Source: Escherichia phage vB_EcoM_SA21RB. Taken from it: a DNA stretch of 64,000 bases. Positions within the stretch are counted from its first letter, which is position 1. Each line of letters begins with the position of its first letter. The stretch is from sequence record OL960580; one strand, 5' to 3'. The position numbers and the translations under genes were made by a program. The notes under the pieces are model-generated. The model ran no database searches, was not told the origin of the DNA, and worked only from the letters and a program-made list of their open reading frames with translations. This document shows, piece by piece, positions 24,554 to 38,686 of this stretch.

Positions 24554-24843
24554 TCAGTCTCCAATTTAATTTTCATAATTCTAGCGTATGATTGTGCCAT
24601 CTCCGCGCCTCGCTCTATACATTCAAAATCAGAAGAGCACGGGTCATTTTTATAGGTCGTTCTCATAAAACTATAGAATTGTTCAGACGATTCTACACTT
24701 TTATTTTCAAAAAGTGTATAAACGTGCCTAATACCAGATTCCATAAATTTATCAAAATGAGGATCGACATTCGCTTCAATCGATGGAGATAAAACAAATG
24801 ACAATCCTAGCATGGCAAAAAGTGCCGTTGCTTTTAAGGCCAT
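24550..24843 (-). CDS. rI: lysis inhibition regulator RI (periplasmic antiholin)
   Basis: 97 aa; MALKATALFAMLGLSFVLSPSIEA signal-anchor; near-identical to remembered T4 RI. Confidence 0.88.
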   Translation of the reverse strand: MALKATALFAMLGLSFVLSPSIEANVDPHFDKFMESGIRHVYTLFENKSVESSEQFYSFMRTTYKNDPCSSDFECIERGAEMAQSYARIMKIKLETE

Positions 24844-24855
24844 AAAGGCCTCCTA

Positions 24856-25068
24856 TCATTTTTGTCCTGTATTTACTTTATGCCGATGCACGGCCTTAAC
24901 TTTATCAAGGTATTTTTCAAAATTTCGCAATCTAGTATAGTCTGCCGGAGATTGGTTGAGTGATACTTCTCGACGCAAAGCTGAAATAACATTTCCAACT
25001 TCCCTACGAATTTCATCTAATTGAAGAACAGTAAGATTGCGAAGTTGCTTTTCAGTTAATTGTAGCAT
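24856..25068 (-). CDS. hypothetical protein between tk and rI
   Basis: 70-aa ORF. Confidence 0.45.
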
Positions 25069-25110
25069 ATATACCCCTTTAGTTAGATAAACCTATTTAT
25101 AACTTTTGCA

Positions 25111-25692
25111 CTAACCGAGCTTTTTAGTTAATTCATTCCAATGTTTTCTACACAAAGAAACATAAATTTCATCACCAATACAGATTTGATTACCTTCTTT
25201 AACTGGTGTTCCATCTTCCATTAATCGAGCTGTCATAATCGCTTTTTTACCACAATGACAAACTGCTTTTAGTTCAATAAGTTTATCTGCAATCGCCAAA
25301 AGTTCTTTAGAACCTTCAAATAATTTTCCAGCGAAATCAGTCCTTAGCCCATAAGCCATAACAGGAACATTATATGTATCAACAATTCGGCTTAATTGAT
25401 GCACTTGTTCAGTTTTTAAAAACTGAGCTTCATCTACAAATACGCAATGAATATCTTTTTGTGCTTCAGCCCATTTATAGAACTCAAAAATATCCATATC
25501 ATCCGTAATAATATTCGCTTCCTGTTTAATTCCAATGCGAGAAACGACTTCACAGACAGAATCGCGAGTATCAATAGCAGGCTTAAGAACTAATACACTC
25601 ATTCCACGTTCTTTATAATTATGTGCAGCAGTCAAAAGAGAAGCAGATTTTCCAGCATTCATTGCTGCATAAGTAAAAATTAAACTCGCCAT
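25111..25692 (-). CDS. tk: thymidine kinase
   Basis: 193 aa; P-loop AAMNAGKS, Walker B FVDEAQF and C-terminal zinc cysteines CHCG...CRKH. Confidence 0.92.
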   Translation of the reverse strand: MASLIFTYAAMNAGKSASLLTAAHNYKERGMSVLVLKPAIDTRDSVCEVVSRIGIKQEANIITDDMDIFEFYKWAEAQKDIHCVFVDEAQFLKTEQVHQLSRIVDTYNVPVMAYGLRTDFAGKLFEGSKELLAIADKLIELKAVCHCGKKAIMTARLMEDGTPVKEGNQICIGDEIYVSLCRKHWNELTKKLG

Positions 25693-25701
25693 ATCACCTT
25701 C

Positions 25702-25887
25702 TTAAAGCGTATTCACATAAGCTATTAATTCGTTTTCTTTCTTATCAAACCGATCAGCAAATTCTTCTTGCTGTTCGGGAGATAGCGGGCCGTATTCATC
25801 ATAAAAGGTGTTTGCTTCTGTATGCTCATCTAGAAGTTCATGGATAAGCTCAAACAATTTATCTTTTTGTTCTTTACTCAGACTCAT
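25702..25887 (-). CDS. hypothetical small acidic protein
   Basis: 61-aa ORF. Confidence 0.4.
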   Translation of the reverse strand: MSLSKEQKDKLFELIHELLDEHTEANTFYDEYGPLSPEQQEEFADRFDKKENELIAYVNTL

Positions 25888-26056
25888 ATATTAATTCCAG
25901 GAGTTTTAAAATAATTCGCTTTTGCTTAAATATTTCCATAGTTAAATGACCAGTATCTTTTTGACCGATTCCAATGGCAAAACCTTTATTAACAGCGAGT
26001 TCAATTAAATTATCAAGCTCACGTAACACTTCGTATTGTAACTCAAAACTATTCAT
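25874..26056 (-). CDS. hypothetical small protein
   Basis: 60-aa ORF. Confidence 0.4.
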   Translation of the reverse strand: MNSFELQYEVLRELDNLIELAVNKGFAIGIGQKDTGHLTMEIFKQKRIILKLLELIYESE

Positions 26057-26280
26057 TTTGGTTTACCTTCTTTAACGAAATCAGGATAAGGATAAAATCC
26101 TGAATAAAATCCTTCACCTTTATGATTGATGCATCCTTTATTAGAACAATAGCACCAATAATCGAAATCACAAGTCATTTCATCGTTGCATAAAGCAAAA
26201 ACAACCGGCCACTTACACTTTTCACAGTGGGCATTTTTAAGAATACTAGTTTGGCTCATAACCATGTAACCTTTAAGCAA
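26053..26280 (-). CDS. cysteine-rich small protein (possible zinc-binding)
   Basis: 75 aa; CEKCKW...CNDEMTCDFDYWCYCSNKGC. Confidence 0.45.
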   Translation of the reverse strand: MLKGYMVMSQTSILKNAHCEKCKWPVVFALCNDEMTCDFDYWCYCSNKGCINHKGEGFYSGFYPYPDFVKEGKPK

Positions 26281-26468
26281 TATTCTTCTACATGTTGTTT
26301 ACGACCTTTCTTATCAATAAAGGTATATTCAACGAATGTTCCAATGTAGTCTTTATCTACATCATGTGGACTATTAATTGGACATTTAGTGCGGCAAATG
26401 CGTTCCCATTGACGAATAATTACTGCTTTGTTTTTAGGATCAAACGGATGTGGGTAATGTACTTTCAT
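26256..26468 (-). CDS. hypothetical small protein
   Basis: 70-aa ORF. Confidence 0.4.
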   Translation of the reverse strand: MKVHYPHPFDPKNKAVIIRQWERICRTKCPINSPHDVDKDYIGTFVEYTFIDKKGRKQHVEEYCLKVTWL

Positions 26469-26919
26469 AATCCACCACTATTAAATCAATATCAGGAGTA
26501 AACATGTCGATTAATTTAGAAACCTTATCCCAATCACCGCCAGCAATACCACAACCTATGCGTGGAATGTAAATTACTGGTTTAAACAAAAGGGTTTCTG
26601 CCTGTAGATTTAATTCTATCATGCAGTTTACTAAAGCACCATAATCAAGATTAGGACCTGGTTCGTATTGCGTATACAGGTTATAGCATATACCAAATCC
26701 CGTAGGACTATGTTTAAAAACAATAGACATATCGCCTAATTTATCACGAGAACCGTACTCAGTAGTGGTTTTATCTATTTCTAAAATTTTGGGATAGGCT
26801 CTTGCTAATTGACCCGCTACGCCTGAACCCATAGTATGAAAACAATTGCACCCGTGCGCAATAATATTACCTTGAAGAAATAGGGCGACAATATCGCCCT
26901 TGATATATTTTACAATCAT
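26440..26919 (-). CDS. macro-domain protein (ADP-ribose binding/processing fold)
   Basis: 159 aa; KGDIV...IIAHGCNCFHTMGSGVAGQLA and IGCGIAGGDWDKV match the two glycine-rich macro-domain motifs. Confidence 0.6.
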   Translation of the reverse strand: MIVKYIKGDIVALFLQGNIIAHGCNCFHTMGSGVAGQLARAYPKILEIDKTTTEYGSRDKLGDMSIVFKHSPTGFGICYNLYTQYEPGPNLDYGALVNCMIELNLQAETLLFKPVIYIPRIGCGIAGGDWDKVSKLIDMFTPDIDLIVVDYESTLPTSV

Positions 26920-27257
26920 CTAGTACTCAATCCTCGATTATAAGAATCTACCAAACGGTCAACCATTGAATGACAAGCGGCTTTATCTTTTTCCTCCGCA
27001 ACTGAACATTCTAGGGTATTCCACTTTTTAGCATATCGTTTTAACAATGTATCATTTTTGTATCTGCTTGATTTATCTCTTTCTCCGTCTTTATATGCAT
27101 ATATTAATTTCTGTGCAAATTCAGCTTGGCATGCTTTATTTTTCCCGCAATAATCCGCTGCAGTACGGTTTACATACTCTCTAATTTCAGTATATGATGT
27201 ATCTGCTAACGCAGAAAATGAAATTAATCCTATACATAAAACCAAAATTTTAGTCAT
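26916..27257 (-). CDS. secreted small protein (signal peptide)
   Basis: 113 aa; N-terminal MTKILVLCIGLISFSALA signal peptide, four cysteines. Confidence 0.5.
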   Translation of the reverse strand: MTKILVLCIGLISFSALADTSYTEIREYVNRTAADYCGKNKACQAEFAQKLIYAYKDGERDKSSRYKNDTLLKRYAKKWNTLECSVAEEKDKAACHSMVDRLVDSYNRGLSTR

Positions 27258-27795
27258 TTACTATTTCCAAAAGTTTATTATTTTTAAGGTAATTAGCCTT
27301 TTCTAGGACTTCAGAAGCATATTTAGAACCTGCTTTAACATTCCATCCCGAATTATAAGAGGATATTGCTTTTCTTATATCGCCCTTATGTATATTTAAC
27401 CAATAAGAAAGTTCAATGTACGCCCAGGAAGCTGAATTGGATCGTTTATTCAACATTCTTTTTATTTCAGCATCGGTCATATTATAACCAAGTTCCTTAA
27501 CTCTTGCTCGCATAGTAGGCAAATAATTTTGGAACATTCCATAAGCGTGATGCTTTGGTTTAGATTTTAAATTAACTCCGCCAGAGCTTTCTTGCCATAA
27601 AATAGCAGCCATTATATGACCTAATCCGCTCTTGTGGATATTTTTGTGTGTTTTATATTTTCCATCCTTAGAAAATTGTTCCCCGAATTGATACGCGTAA
27701 CGCATGTTATCGAGTTGGACATTACTGAAAGTATGCTCGGAGCTATGTGCCATCATTGAAATGGCCAATAGACCAGCGAGTAGTGCTTTTCTCAT
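27250..27795 (-). CDS. secreted lytic transglycosylase-like protein (SLT domain)
   Basis: 181 aa; signal peptide MRKALLAGLLAISMMAHS; ILWQESSGG...YGMFQ resembles the SLT catalytic-Glu motif. Confidence 0.55.
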   Translation of the reverse strand: MRKALLAGLLAISMMAHSSEHTFSNVQLDNMRYAYQFGEQFSKDGKYKTHKNIHKSGLGHIMAAILWQESSGGVNLKSKPKHHAYGMFQNYLPTMRARVKELGYNMTDAEIKRMLNKRSNSASWAYIELSYWLNIHKGDIRKAISSYNSGWNVKAGSKYASEVLEKANYLKNNKLLEIVND

Positions 27796-27802
27796 GCTTA
27801 CC

Positions 27803-28264
27803 TCATTGAGTTTTAATTACTGCTTTAGAAGCCTTTCCTGGTAAACGACGACTGTTAATAATTGCCATCCTGCATTGAAGCGACGGGTCTTTGAACTTCG
27901 CATTAGGTTTACAAACTGTAAATCCAAGCCAAAGATTTCCATCTGTGATTTCTAAACGTCCAGGACGATATTCAACCCCATCAATAAAATCCTCGTCAAT
28001 GTCAGGACGAGGAGGCATACTCAGGAATTCATTAACTTCTAAAACATGGTCTTTTATTTTATGGAATAATTCAAAAACGTATGTCTCATCAATCTCCCGT
28101 TGAATTGCACGATCAAGAAGATGTTGAGAATATTTTAGATGAAACGATGAGACCCCTGCTGCTTTTGATGCCTCACGAATCTCATTGTTAATTTGACGAA
28201 ACTCCGACTCAAAGTGACGACGAAGCTTATTTCGACGGATAAAAACTTCTGTGTTGATAGTCAT
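27803..28264 (-). CDS. regB: endoribonuclease RegB
   Basis: 153 aa; sequence MTINTEVFIRRNKLRRHFESEF matches T4 RegB; early promoter directly upstream. Confidence 0.88.
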   Translation of the reverse strand: MTINTEVFIRRNKLRRHFESEFRQINNEIREASKAAGVSSFHLKYSQHLLDRAIQREIDETYVFELFHKIKDHVLEVNEFLSMPPRPDIDEDFIDGVEYRPGRLEITDGNLWLGFTVCKPNAKFKDPSLQCRMAIINSRRLPGKASKAVIKTQ

Positions 28265-28287
28265 GTTATTCTCCTCTTAACTGATAG

Positions 28288-28322
28288 AAAAATTATACCA
28301 CAGTCAAGAGGAAAAGTAAACA
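28288..28322 (-). promoter_or_regulatory. T4 early promoter for regB
   Basis: minus strand GTTTAC ... TGGTATAAT, 25-60 nt upstream of regB. Confidence 0.65.
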
Positions 28323-28323
28323 G

Positions 28324-28602
28324 TTATTCTTTAAATCTAATCAATTTATTCATAGACTTTGAAACTTCTGCACGAACCTCATGTAGATTTTTGAGCTGTT
28401 CAAGGCGCTGCGTATAGTAAGCAATTTCATCTTCTTCGAGACAGTCCTGTGAATCTTCTTTAAGATAACGTGCATAGTCCTGGAAAGCGTTACGGATTAC
28501 TTCCTGGAAATCATCAAGACTTTGAATTTTCTTAGGAGCAGCAGATACACGACGAGGGGCAGTATAATACTCATAACCAAACCCTGCACTTAATTGAGCC
28601 AT
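28324..28602 (-). CDS. hypothetical protein
   Basis: 92 aa from internal Met [10 protein letters not shown] (track ORF starts 14 codons earlier). Confidence 0.4.
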
Positions 28603-28868
28603 TAATATTTTTCCTCTGGTTGGAACATTGCACGACAAGCCCACATACTGGCTTCTTTGAGTTTCGTTTTAGCAATAGTTAACTGATCGAGGCTTTCAGC
28701 ATAATTCTTCGCGAGTTCATCATCTTCACAGCTATCGAATGCTTCCCAGAATTCATCATATAAAGCATCAAAGATAAGTCCTAAACGAACTTCAGCGTCT
28801 TTGATAGCATTCACTTTACCGATTTTCTCTTCAGTATGCGGCTTATAACCTTTAATGTCTTCAATCAT
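28602..28868 (-). CDS. hypothetical protein (at the remembered position of T4 vs.4/Acb2)
   Basis: 88 aa from MIEDIKGYK; second ORF upstream of regB, where I recall T4 vs.4; sequence identity not verified. Confidence 0.4.
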
Positions 28869-29082
28869 ATTTGACTTCCTCACCAGTACATAAATCATAT
28901 TCAACTAAACGAATAGGTTCATGAATGCCATATCCCTGAACAGAAATTTCTGTCGTAGGATAAATTCCATCAATATCACCCATATTCCACGCTTCGTTAA
29001 ATTGCTGTTCGCCTGAATTACTAAACCACTCGGCGAAAGCATTTAGCACATCTTTAGAACCTTCAATAATTATCTTTGCCAT
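28861..29082 (-). CDS. hypothetical small acidic protein
   Basis: 73-aa ORF. Confidence 0.4.
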   Translation of the reverse strand: MAKIIIEGSKDVLNAFAEWFSNSGEQQFNEAWNMGDIDGIYPTTEISVQGYGIHEPIRLVEYDLCTGEEVKYD

Positions 29083-29444
29083 TACAAACTCTCGGTAAAG
29101 GTACGAGCGATAACGTCGCGCTGCTGTTCCGGAGTCAGAGAGTTAAAGCGAACTGCATAACCGGATACACGGATGGTCAGCTGCGGATATTTTTCCGGAT
29201 GCTTAACTGCATCTTCCAGAGTTTCACGACGCAGAACGTTAACGTTCAGGTGTTGACCACCTTCAACTTTAACTGTAGGCTGTTGCTCAATTTCAATTTC
29301 ACGGGCATGCAAACCGTAGAAAATTTCTGGGTCTACAAAAGAGTCCTCTTTAAAGGTTTTAGAGACAATAATTCGTGCTTGAATACCATCTTCAAAATAA
29401 ATAGTACCTTTATGTGTGCCTTCAAGAATTTGATATGCTTTCAT
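29082..29444 (-). CDS. autonomous glycyl-radical cofactor (GrcA/YfiD-like)
   Basis: 120 aa; C-terminal [25 protein letters not shown] is the glycyl-radical loop found in GrcA and pyruvate formate-lyase. Confidence 0.75.
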
Positions 29445-29778: not shown

Positions 29779-30365
29779 CATTGCATTCCGATTACGAAAA
29801 ACTGTGGACGAGTAATACCGCCAATACAACATTTAATATTACAGCAGCAGTGTACGGTGTCAATATGGACACTATAAATCTTATCCATATCAGGAGATTT
29901 GACAGGCTCGTCAATTATATACAAAATTCGCGAAAGCGATAAACCTCTGAACTTGCTTCCTTTATTACCTATAAAACTGCGCACAGAATCAGTAAATAAA
30001 CGAAAACGTATATCATCATTAGAATAACGCGAAAATTCCTTTTTAATGTTATTTGCAGAAATTTTAGCGTAAGCTGAAGTATTAGAAAGAACAATAACTG
30101 TTCCACCGTCATACAACCAATTAGCGGCAAAATTAGTTACTGCAGTTGATTTACCAGATTGACGTCCACCATCTAGTCGAAGTGTGCAATACTGCTTAAG
30201 TAAGTCTTCAAATGGCGGGATATATTCGTTTTTACAAATTTCTTCTACTCTAGCGTCAGAATGGTGTGTAAAAGCATTCATCAGGGATAGATAAGGACCA
30301 GTTAAAAATGTTCTCATTTTCTTCTCTCTAAATTTGGGCCATTCCATGGCGCATGAATTGTCCAT
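29778..30365 (-). CDS. P-loop NTP-binding protein
   Basis: 195 aa; Walker A GGRQSGKST, Walker B-like LYIIDEP; cysteine cluster at C-terminus. Confidence 0.5.
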   Translation of the reverse strand: MDNSCAMEWPKFREKKMRTFLTGPYLSLMNAFTHHSDARVEEICKNEYIPPFEDLLKQYCTLRLDGGRQSGKSTAVTNFAANWLYDGGTVIVLSNTSAYAKISANNIKKEFSRYSNDDIRFRLFTDSVRSFIGNKGSKFRGLSLSRILYIIDEPVKSPDMDKIYSVHIDTVHCCCNIKCCIGGITRPQFFVIGMQ

Positions 30366-30470
30366 TTCTGTATTTACCCATTACCGCACTTGGGCTCGAC
30401 CTTATTACAGGTTGGCGGGAATCCCTCATAGAATCATGAGGTCCAGCTTGTTCCCATATTTCTTATTTGC

Positions 30471-30944
30471 TTATTTGAATGATTTGACGTACTGAATAGA
30501 ACCTTTACTATTCACGAAAGCGATTTTACCATTTTTATTATACATGGTAGCAGTACGCTGATAGCCATAAGTTTGTTTACCAGATTGATAACCAACTAAT
30601 GCGAAATTATCTTCACCCATTTTATTCTGTTTAGCGCGAATACGTTCATGACCGTGTGCCATAAGAACCTTAGCATCACCAGTTGCAATGGATCGACGAG
30701 TTTTTTCATCTTCAACTGTATTAACAAAGTCGTCAAATGAATCAAATTTAGCATGAGATTTATTATACAGTTTTCCATCTACTGCATAATTATATCCTTG
30801 TACATCCATCTCAACTTCTGTACCATCATCCAATACAGCAGTGATTTTCTGACCTTTTTTAAATTTCAAAAGATCAGTAAAAGATTCAGCAATAATTTGA
30901 GAATTAATAGCTGCTTCAGTAATAAATTCTTGATATGTTTTCAT
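30471..30944 (-). CDS. internal-protein-like protein with capsid targeting sequence
   Basis: 157 aa; N-terminal MKTYQEFITEA (T4 internal-protein targeting peptide with L/I-x-E cleavage motif); adjacent to ipIII. Confidence 0.65.
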   Translation of the reverse strand: MKTYQEFITEAAINSQIIAESFTDLLKFKKGQKITAVLDDGTEVEMDVQGYNYAVDGKLYNKSHAKFDSFDDFVNTVEDEKTRRSIATGDAKVLMAHGHERIRAKQNKMGEDNFALVGYQSGKQTYGYQRTATMYNKNGKIAFVNSKGSIQYVKSFK

Positions 30945-30985
30945 ATGTTTCCTTTAAATGTAAATAGGTCTGAGTATTAGCTTTA

Positions 30986-31567
30986 TTAAGAATTACCACG
31001 GGCTGCATTAGCAACGGCGTAAGCGTACTGAACATTAGCGTCTTTAAACGTACCTTTAGAGGTATCTAGTTCTGCCTTAAAGCCGCCTTTAGTCATAACC
31101 TCGGCGAATTCTTTACGGAAAGCCATTGCATCAAGGCTTCTCCATGATGATTTGTGCTTGGCGAATTCAAGACCAGCGTAGTTGACAGCCTTAGCTAATT
31201 TATTATCAATAACCCATTTACCAGATTTAGGCACAAACACCGGGCCTTTCTGTTTAGAGAATAGTTTTAAATTCCAGCGACGAAGGTCACCGTCAGCTTT
31301 AACAAAAGCTGCGTCCAAGTTACTAGCAACAACATCTTGAATATGACCAAATTTAAGCCCATCAACTTCAATATTTAAATCGGTACGCCAGCGAAGTCCT
31401 TCCCAAGCGAAGGCTTTAAAGTCGGAAGCCTTTGTAGCTAAGTACCGTTCAATAGGAGCTGTTTTAGGGTCAAAGCCGTTTCCCGATCGGTAGGTCCACT
31501 CATCTTTATTAATGCCTTTGGCCTTTACTACAGAAGCTTCGGCAATAAATTCTTGATAGGTTTTCAT
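30986..31567 (-). CDS. ipIII: internal protein III
   Basis: 193 aa; MKTYQEFIAEASVVKAKG targeting peptide and body matching remembered T4 IPIII; early promoter upstream. Confidence 0.85.
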   Translation of the reverse strand: MKTYQEFIAEASVVKAKGINKDEWTYRSGNGFDPKTAPIERYLATKASDFKAFAWEGLRWRTDLNIEVDGLKFGHIQDVVASNLDAAFVKADGDLRRWNLKLFSKQKGPVFVPKSGKWVIDNKLAKAVNYAGLEFAKHKSSWRSLDAMAFRKEFAEVMTKGGFKAELDTSKGTFKDANVQYAYAVANAARGNS

Positions 31568-31662: not shown

Positions 31663-32630
<968 letters not shown>

Positions 32631-32649
<19 letters not shown>

Positions 32650-37664: not shown

Positions 37665-37740
37665 TGGTCGAGGCAGTAGGGATCGAACCTACGACCTAGG
37701 ACTTAGAAGGTCCTTGCTCTTCCTTCTGAGCTATGCCCCG
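37665..37740 (-). tRNA. tRNA-Arg (anticodon UCU)
   Basis: hand-folded cloverleaf; anticodon loop CTTCTAA; T-loop TTCGATC; encoded CCA. Confidence 0.85.
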
Positions 37741-37744
37741 TAAT

Positions 37745-37820
37745 TGGGGTGACCGATGGGAGTCGAACCCATGACTACGAGAATCACAATCTCGAGTTCT
37801 ACCAACTGAACTACGGCCAC
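37745..37820 (-). tRNA. tRNA-His (anticodon GUG)
   Basis: hand-folded; D-stem GTTC/GAAC, anticodon loop TTGTGAT, T-arm ATGGG-TTCGACT-CCCAT, discriminator C, encoded CCA. Confidence 0.8.
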
Positions 37821-37934
37821 ATTAATACCTACTCCAACAATCAAGATGTCTTCACACGAAATTAAGAGAAGAGTGATCAGTTCAACCCCGATAATCGCGT
37901 CAAGTAGATATTAATGTGACAGTTGTCACAAATT

Positions 37935-38009
37935 TGGCGGACGTGATAGGATTCGAACCTATAACCAATCGCTTAACAGGCGATCGCTCTGCCATTGAGC
38001 TACACATCC
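37935..38009 (-). tRNA. tRNA-Asn (anticodon GUU)
   Basis: hand-folded; acceptor GGATGTG/CACGTCC, anticodon loop CTGTTAA, T-loop TTCGAAT, encoded CCA. Confidence 0.85.
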
Positions 38010-38013
38010 AAAT

Positions 38014-38100
38014 TGGTGGGGAGTGATGGAGTCGAACCACCCGAGTCGCAATGACAATGGATTTACAGTCCACACCGCTACCTCTACGGGATAACTCCCC
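38014..38100 (-). tRNA. tRNA-Tyr (anticodon GUA)
   Basis: hand-folded; perfect acceptor GGGGAGT/ACTCCCC, anticodon loop CTGTAAA, long variable arm as in bacterial tRNA-Tyr, encoded CCA. Confidence 0.75.
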
Positions 38101-38113
38101 TTAATTCTTAATT

Positions 38114-38188
38114 TGGTGGCCCTGGGTGGAATTGAACCACCATCTGGCGATTATGAGTCGCTTGCTTGAACCTTCCAGCTACAGGGCC
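38114..38188 (-). tRNA. tRNA with CAU anticodon (Ile-lysidine type or Met)
   Basis: hand-folded; acceptor GGCCCTG/CAGGGCC, anticodon loop CTCATAA; lies after tRNA-Thr, where T4 has tRNA-Ile. Confidence 0.8.
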
Positions 38189-38189
38189 T

Positions 38190-38264
38190 TGGTGCTGATT
38201 GACGGAATCGAACCGCCGACCTTCTCATTACAAGTGAGTTGCTCTACCTACTGAGCTAAATCAG
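38190..38264 (-). tRNA. tRNA-Thr (anticodon UGU)
   Basis: hand-folded; perfect acceptor GCTGATT/AATCAGC, anticodon loop CTTGTAA, encoded CCA. Confidence 0.88.
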
Positions 38265-38270
38265 CAAAAC

Positions 38271-38360
38271 TGGCGGAGGCGATAGGATTTGAACCTATGA
38301 GTCGCCGGAGCGACTGCCGGTTTTCAAGACCGGTGCATTAAACCACTCTGCCACGCCTCC
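38271..38360 (-). tRNA. tRNA-Ser (anticodon UGA)
   Basis: hand-folded type II tRNA; acceptor GGAGGCG/CGCCTCC, anticodon loop CTTGAAA, long variable arm, encoded CCA. Confidence 0.85.
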
Positions 38361-38362
38361 AG

Positions 38363-38436
38363 TCTCCATACAAGGATTTGAACCTTGGACCTCCTGATCC
38401 CAAATCAGGCGCTCTACCAAACTGAGCTACACGGAG
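38363..38436 (-). tRNA. tRNA-Pro (anticodon UGG)
   Basis: hand-folded; anticodon loop TTTGGGA, T-arm CAAGG-TTCAAAT-CCTTG; CCA not encoded. Confidence 0.75.
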
Positions 38437-38446
38437 TAAATTAAAT

Positions 38447-38520
<74 letters not shown>

Positions 38521-38525
38521 AAATT

Positions 38526-38612
38526 TGGTGCGAGAAGTGGGACTCGAACCCACAAGGAAATCATTCCGCAGCATTTTAAGTGCTGTGCCTTTACCAATTT
38601 GACCATTCTCGC
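38526..38612 (-). tRNA. tRNA-Leu (anticodon UAA)
   Basis: hand-folded type II tRNA; acceptor GCGAGAA/TTCTCGC, anticodon loop CTTAAAA, long variable arm, encoded CCA. Confidence 0.85.
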
Positions 38613-38613
38613 G

Positions 38614-38686
38614 CTGGGAATAAAGGACTCGAACCTTTGCATCCTGGAATCAAAATCCAGTGCCTTACCAACTTGGCTAATTCCCA
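38614..38686 (-). tRNA. tRNA-Gln (anticodon UUG)
   Basis: hand-folded; perfect acceptor TGGGAAT/ATTCCCA, anticodon loop TTTTGAT; abuts tRNA-Leu (dimeric precursor as in T4); CCA not encoded. Confidence 0.85.

Follow-up and report, generated by a model that had tools for sequence, protein, structure and literature searches.

A diverged allele of the T4 macrodomain gene tk.4/adfM in Escherichia phage vB_EcoM_SA21RB, with a predicted glutamine-type active centre

We analysed a 64,000-nucleotide stretch of DNA from Escherichia phage vB_EcoM_SA21RB (sequence record OL960580; the whole stretch is called the window below), in which an open reading frame (ORF) with an ATG start, at 26440..26919 on the minus strand, encodes a macro-domain protein of 159 amino acids. 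By homology and position this ORF is an allele of T4 tk.4, now named adfM (anti-DarT factor macrodomain), and on the best-supported reading its product is a probable DNA ADP-ribosyl glycohydrolase of the AdfM type, directed against DarT2. The analysis establishes the fold and its class, the conservation of active-site residues, a gene order shared with T4 tk.4 and purifying selection. A preliminary description of the window had seen the macro domain correctly; that the gene is the known tk.4, and a strongly diverged allele of it, had escaped recognition. As the gene family and its role have already been described, the finding is real but largely explained, and what is added here is the divergence of the allele, the putative Gln-type centre and the distinction from the PhiKZ/DarG type.

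DarTG blocks phages through ADP-ribosylation of their DNA; in T-even phages the countermeasures AdfA, AdfN and AdfM are layered against it. T4 without AdfA and AdfN is still resistant to DarTG2, and a further factor was predicted (PMC11825919). When T4 transposon mutants were screened on a DarTG2 host (HIDEN-SEQ), tk.4 was the single significant hit, a clean tk.4 knockout was DarTG2-sensitive, and the gene was renamed adfM (bioRxiv 10.1101/2025.11.20.689424, a preprint of November 2025). Macro domains occur in ~41% of myoviruses (PMC9503650), which together with the T4 genetics makes such a domain in a T-even phage unsurprising. Three roles had been offered in the preliminary description: the reversal of host DarT-type ADP-ribosylation is backed by the requirement for the syntenic T4 gene tk.4 on the DarTG2 host and by the sensitised knockout, while regulation of Alt/Mod and degradation of Thoeris-type signals find no support here.

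In the proposed mechanism, the window protein would be a stand-alone ADP-ribosyl glycohydrolase of the ALC1/TARG1-like class. A DarT2-type toxin of the host would ADP-ribosylate thymidines (TNTC motifs) in single-stranded phage DNA, and a cleft made of loop 1 (HGCNC...MGSG) and the phosphate-binding loop (GCGIAGG) would hold the ADP-ribose of the modified DNA. Through SCO6735-type chemistry Q84, held by N25, would orient the distal ribose so that an activated water can attack it; hydrolysis of the N-glycosidic link would then restore replicable DNA. This chemistry would be Gln-based, unlike that of DarG and TARG1, which is Lys-based. We infer that the window allele, 58% identical to T4 AdfM, has the same activity and target. 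Should the allele prove active, T4-like phages would owe their anti-DarT2 protection to two or more deeply diverged alleles of the macrodomain, with Gln-type chemistry where DarG has the Lys type. This would bear on host-range prediction for therapeutic T4-like phages and on the correction of a widespread 'phosphatase' annotation.

Fold and predicted active site

The Pfam Macro model (PF01661) scores 32 bits with the protein (gathering cut-off 22; E 1.3e-7), over model positions 2-117 (116 of 118), and PHROG 335, which is labelled 'phosphatase', matches with E 1e-71. The product begins MIVKYIKGDIV..., and the KGDIV start and both glycine-rich motifs, IIAHGCNCFHTMGSGVAGQLA and IGCGIAGGDWDKV, are present exactly as first quoted. 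An AlphaFold2 (AF2) model built from a 90-sequence alignment (predicted local distance difference test 94.1, predicted template-modelling score 0.89) has the three-layer alpha/beta/alpha macro fold. The best Foldseek matches in the PDB were TARG1, Poa1p, BT1257 and DarG, with template-modelling scores of 0.72-0.75. The ranking agrees with that from a profile of the 90 homologues run against PDB sequences (BT1257 1e-18, TARG1 1.6e-16, SCO6735 1.6e-15, Poa1p 1.8e-14, DarG 1e-11 to 2e-10). The nearest neighbours in structure and sequence are TARG1, DarG, SCO6735/BT1257 and Poa1p, not MacroD, PARG or viral macros, and because both searches give these neighbours the window protein is classed as an ALC1/TARG1-like macrodomain. 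The preliminary description had named a non-macro fold in a structure or profile search as the result that would count against it; both searches give the macro fold, and Pfam, genome comparison and AF2 with Foldseek confirm that this T-even-type phage encodes a macro-domain protein. The Pfam, PHROG, profile and AF2 results, with the prevalence and substitution rates given below, speak strongly against a chance ORF.

Across the 90 homologues, which reach down to ~38% identity, 14 residues are invariant. They lie in the putative catalytic loop 1, HGCNCFHTMGSG (H22-G33; 26821..26856, minus strand), with H22, G23, N25, C26 and G33; in the NLYTQ motif (N80-Q84; 26668..26682, minus strand), with N80, Y82 and Q84; and in the phosphate-binding loop RIGCGIAGGDW (R120-W130; 26530..26562, minus strand), with G122, G124 and W130, where A126, G127 and G128 are also at least 90% conserved. 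The others are A35, D49 and P119. We mapped residues through alignments via BT1257 and via SCO6735 and through a joint L-INS-i alignment. Q84 aligns with SCO6735 Gln85, TARG1 Lys84 and DarG Lys80, and H22, N25, G122 and G124 align with SCO6735 His24, Asn27, Gly126 and Gly128. A126 stands at TARG1 Asp125, and neither the segment N80-Q84 nor the loop after it contains a lysine.

SCO6735 is without the catalytic Lys and Asp, yet it removes ADP-ribose from DarT-modified thymidine both in vitro and in cells; its Q85A mutant is inactive, N27S is almost inactive, and a water-mediated mechanism has been proposed (PMC9411070). The ALC1-like class in general reverses thymidine ADP-ribosylation. As SCO6735 is active without Lys and Asp, and as its Gln, Asn, His and two loop Gly are matched in the window protein, with a shift of 1-2 residues in two other alignments, a Gln-type centre is predicted for the window protein as for T4 AdfM.

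Several observations weigh against an AdfM-type activity on DNA. For T4 AdfM itself, removal of ADP-ribose from DNA only 'seems likely' in its authors' words (bioRxiv 10.1101/2025.11.20.689424). The window protein differs from T4 AdfM at 42% of its residues, including the phosphate loop (GCGIAGGDW versus GAGIGKGNW). The two lysines with which SCO6735 contacts DNA, K34 and K89, are S32 and G88 in the window protein, and the extended mobile loop of SCO6735/BT1257 (~5 extra residues) is absent. The equivalence of Q84 comes from sequence alignments, and those to TARG1 and PhiKZ are the ones with the shifted register. Finally, the window protein is acidic, with an isoelectric point (pI) of 5.0 compared to 9.5 for SCO6735, although PhiKZ gp104, which cleaves ADP-ribose from DNA, is also acidic (pI 5.05).

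The tk.4 slot and its alleles

The window phage is a T4-like Tequatrovirus: about 80 of 92 tested T4 proteins have a counterpart in the window, mostly with 95-100% identity, and Escherichia phage MLF4 is one of many that match 25000-28500 with 98.5% identity. The order regB (27803-28264), vs.1 (27250-27795), vs (26916..27257), macro ORF, tk.3 (26256..26468), all on the minus strand, is the same as in T4, whose record has tk.4 as the gene between vs and tk.3 and annotates it 'phosphatase; contains A1pp phosphatase motif'. Upstream of the macro ORF, vs encodes the valyl-tRNA synthetase modifier (97% identity to T4 Vs; PHROG 1256), and downstream tk.3 encodes a DUF7202 protein (96% identity to T4 Tk.3; Pfam PF23832). 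The start ATG of the macro ORF overlaps the vs stop codon (ATGA, 26916-26919) and the tk.3 start sits 29 nucleotides inside its 3′ end, and the macro gene is part of a co-directional, overlapping run regB-vs.1-vs-tk.4-tk.3. Homology to T4 Tk.4/AdfM and a location kept between vs and tk.3, in a genome of the Tevenvirinae, mark the ORF as the positional orthologue of tk.4.

Between these conserved flanking proteins, the window protein is only 58% identical to T4 AdfM (E 1e-70), with 87% identity over the first 46 residues and ~46% after residue 46. At the nucleotide level, vs matches T4 with 97.7% identity and tk.3 with 93.3%, codons 1-46 of the macro ORF with 86.2% and codons 47-151 (26467-26781) with 54.9%; the last eight codons (26440-26466) are unaligned, the T4 ORF ending earlier. 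Judged by nucleotide identity and by synonymous divergence (dS), the part from codon 47 to the stop (26440..26781, minus strand) is a replaced allelic cassette relative to T4. The dS between the window and T4 alleles is saturated, at ~2.4 after codon 46, with a non-synonymous divergence (dN) of 0.55 and a dN/dS of ~0.3. Inside the window-type allele group dN/dS is 0.04-0.13, and the window allele is under purifying selection. The low dN/dS within the group, combined with the saturated dS between alleles, indicates that the alleles are old, functional lineages that recombination has moved, neither decaying nor evolving rapidly. In the phosphate loop it is the window allele that carries the family consensus, GCGIAGG, as in SCO6735 and BT1257, while T4 has the unusual GAGIGKG. 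Only tk.2, trna.3 and the ipII-like gene are more diverged than the macro gene among the T4 genes shared with the window; strongly diverged alleles at other loci are trna.3 (56%), nrdC.3 (62%), 55.6 (69%) and 55.3 (73%).

Homologues of the protein are found in 2,788 records overall, from many phages. The window-type allele (at least 90% identity) is present in 318 deposited phage records, RB7 and a Salmonella Dhakavirus (92%) among its carriers, and the T4-type allele in 224. There are 159 records with a Mosigvirus type that has 84% identity to T4, and 101 with types that have 60-80% identity to the window allele (VR5, a Dhakavirus, and EcWhh-1).

Codons 7-13 of the macro ORF contain an 8-bp hairpin, AGGGCGAT-ATT-GTCGCCCT (26882..26900, minus strand; ~ -13 kcal/mol), which is followed by a U-rich stretch and is unique within the window. 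Its stem, including synonymous third positions, is invariant in seven of seven alleles from Tequatrovirus, Mosigvirus and Dhakavirus, among which dS is 0.5-2.4, and it is retained in more distant phages by paired changes (AAG/CTN to AAA/TTA; GGC/GCC to GGA/TCC). Over 56 distinct family 5′ ends, the hairpin is found in only about a third of members; paired cells amount to 63.4% compared to 60.6% in shuffles, and the covariation score of 0.165 compared to 0.144 is reached in 24 of 500 shuffles. This support is too weak for a structure kept throughout the family. In a scan of 24800-29200, promoter-like sites are no commoner than in shuffled sequence (16 versus 16.5) and terminator-like sites number 8 versus 2.9, one of them this hairpin; the scan does not define a transcription unit. 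Lying just 5′ of the breakpoint, the hairpin might serve regulation or exchange of the cassette.

Alternative readings and genomic surroundings

The main rival to DarT2 reversal is a shifted target range. The window- and T4-type alleles would then be specificity variants of the same enzyme class, with the window allele directed at a different DarT2 lineage, a uracil/RNA-modifying ADP-ribosyltransferase or Glu/Asp-linked protein ADP-ribosylation, not at the E. coli DarTG2 tested with T4. We consider this a good deal less likely than the shared target, but it accords with a cassette so sharply bounded (55% nucleotide identity, with 94-98% in the flanks), with several old allele lineages common to Tequatrovirus, Dhakavirus and Mosigvirus, with the unlike phosphate-binding loops, and with the breadth of the relatives, since TARG1, DarG and SCO6735 also cleave uracil-ADP-ribose on RNA and SCO6735 and TARG1 cleave protein ADP-ribose. 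However, 14 of the 14 family-invariant residues are common to both alleles, the divergence is old (saturated dS, dN/dS ~0.3) and bears no signature of recent positive selection, and for a hydrolase working on the product it should make little difference which toxin was the source, as was argued for AdfN (PMC11825919). A related and similarly tentative idea is that the tk.4/adfM slot is an exchangeable specificity cassette, in which the C-terminal two-thirds are swapped between old lineages of Tequatrovirus, Dhakavirus and Mosigvirus, and GCGIAGG and GAGIGKG alleles act against different toxins or substrates, other DarT2 lineages and uracil-ADP-ribose on RNA being examples. If so, the allele carried would help set the host range of the phage.

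It is unlikely that the protein is a hydrolase of small ADP-ribose derivatives, as its deposited 'phosphatase' label would imply, i.e. a Poa1p-like ADP-ribose-1″-phosphate (Appr1p) phosphatase or a deacetylase of O-acetyl-ADP-ribose, which would clear metabolites in place of DNA adducts. Its loop 1 (HGCNC...T29) does resemble that of Poa1p (IHSCNC...S30); of the Poa1p residues His23 and Ser30, which were mutated in solved structures, the first is present as H22 and the second is replaced by T29. Furthermore, Poa1p is among the best structural matches, and both the T4 RefSeq entry for tk.4 ('phosphatase; A1pp motif') and PHROG 335 carry the label. But the annotation was transferred from the motif and never assayed, the sole known phenotype of the T4 gene is DarTG2-specific, and the catalytic Gln/Asn pair matches that of the DNA-ADP-ribose hydrolase SCO6735. 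To our knowledge, T4-type RNA repair (Pnk/Rnl) yields no Appr1p. Even less probable is a non-catalytic role, in which DarT2 would be bound and inhibited directly or ADP-ribosylated sites would be sequestered. Catalytically dead SCO6735 (Q85A), DarG (K80A) and TARG1 (K84A) still inhibit DarT by interaction, but the strict conservation of the hydrolytic residues over many phage genera and hosts argues for catalysis, not for a toxin-specific interface, and a DarG-like C-terminal DarT-binding domain is missing. Just as improbable is a regulatory role, in which the protein would remove the marks that the ADP-ribosyltransferases of the phage itself (Alt, ModA, ModB) set on host proteins or RNA. T-even phages do encode Alt/Mod transferases, and the macro gene is embedded among T4-type small accessory genes. 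Nevertheless, Alt and Mod modify arginine, and arginine-ADP-ribose is not a typical macro-domain substrate; tk.4 is conditionally essential only with DarTG2; and its homologues are spread over many phages (the 2,788 records above), whose Alt/Mod content was left unchecked. An AdfM-type hydrolase that counters DarT2 is thus the reading we prefer.

Beyond tk.3, further small genes lead to tk (25111-25692, minus strand), and this set (25702-26280, minus strand) differs from that of T4: tk.1 is absent, a tk.2-like ORF has 54% identity to T4, and there are an extra 60-amino-acid ORF and a 75-amino-acid Phage_zn_bind (PF23895) ORF. About 5.3 kb from the macro gene lies nudE (32197-32649, minus strand), 96% identical to the Nudix hydrolase of T4, for which that phage's record gives activity on ADP-ribose; it is a speculation that NudE could dispose of ADP-ribose freed by the macrodomain. 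T4 ipII is replaced by a different ORF of 157 amino acids (30471-30944, minus strand; within 30365-30990), whose N-terminus (MKTYQEFI.EA...) is nearly identical to that of the adjoining IPIII. Eleven tRNA genes are encoded at 37665-38686 on the minus strand (Arg, His, Asn, Tyr, one with the Met anticodon CAT, Thr, Ser, Pro, Gly, Leu and Gln), compared to eight in T4, the extra ones being His, Asn and Tyr. No match was found in the window to T4 denV, to the homing endonuclease genes mobB, mobC, mobD, segB and segC, or to tk.1, 49.3, e.7 and 5.3.

Among more distant homologues, an 'orphan antitoxin' origin, with a DarT-like partner beside cellular homologues, found no support in the two contexts read; a Pelagimonas homologue (P0094) stands alone among housekeeping genes. 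In the other context, a distant homologue (P0096) in a metagenomic phage contig of 100-200 kb (L005/L007) lies within a few genes of a PolyA_pol-type nucleotidyltransferase and an anti-CBASS gene of the Acb5 family, this neighbourhood being ~4.1 kb upstream of the macro homologue. These surroundings hint at an anti-defence neighbourhood.

Comparison with known macrodomains

T4 Tk.4/AdfM (NP_049723) occupies the same slot, vs-tk.4-tk.3, and is of similar length, with 155 amino acids compared to 159 in the window protein. The two share the predicted fold class and all 14 family-invariant residues, including H22, N25, Q84, G122 and G124. They differ in that the window protein has a 4-residue C-terminal extension reading into tk.3, and the anti-DarTG2 phenotype is known from the T4 allele only.

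SCO6735 of Streptomyces coelicolor (PDB 5E3B) and BT1257 of Bacteroides (PDB 2FG1) are alike in having Gln in place of the catalytic Lys, and the equivalents of His24, Asn27, Gly126 and Gly128 are conserved in the window protein. These proteins, too, stand alone, outside a toxin-antitoxin (TA) pair. However, they are 26-29% identical to the window protein, whose mobile loop is 5-6 residues shorter (YEPGPNLDY, a length as in TARG1 and DarG), and they are basic and chromosomal, whereas the window protein is acidic and phage-borne. Human TARG1/OARD1 and yeast Poa1p share with it the domain start xYxKGD and the loop-1 His, and TARG1 also the PRIGCG motif; in contrast, TARG1 Lys84 and Asp125 are Gln84 and Ala126 in the window protein, and Poa1p acts on ADP-ribose-1″-phosphate and has large insertions.

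We also considered and rejected a DarG-type macrodomain. The DarG models NF048014 (NCBIfam; cut-off 250 bits, score 27.7 over positions 2-142 of 338) and PDLC02990 (PADLOC; 27.5 bits, positions 3-144 of 329 only) score ~27 bits with the window protein, compared to 133-138 bits with PhiKZ gp104. T4 AdfM scores 30-36 bits with these models, in the macro part only. PhiKZ gp104, which is also named AdfM, removes DarT2 marks biochemically (PMC13309987); it matches M. tuberculosis DarG with 1e-24 and carries FPTKDNWR. The conserved Asn is common to the window protein, to the DarG macrodomain (T. aquaticus/M. tuberculosis; PDB 5M31, 5M3I) and to PhiKZ gp104, and the DarT2 thymidine-ADP-ribose that is the demonstrated target of the latter two is proposed, by analogy, for the window protein. 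In contrast, the motif FPTK(K/D)xWR with the catalytic Lys80 (FPTKxHWR in DarG) is replaced by NLYTQ, the aligned segment NLYTQYEPG having no lysine, and the C-terminal DarT-binding domain of DarG is absent. Because the DarG-model scores and the Lys motif differ, T4-type and PhiKZ AdfM belong to separate macrodomain lineages that have converged on a single defence system, and the name AdfM now spans both, T4 Tk.4 and PhiKZ gp104.
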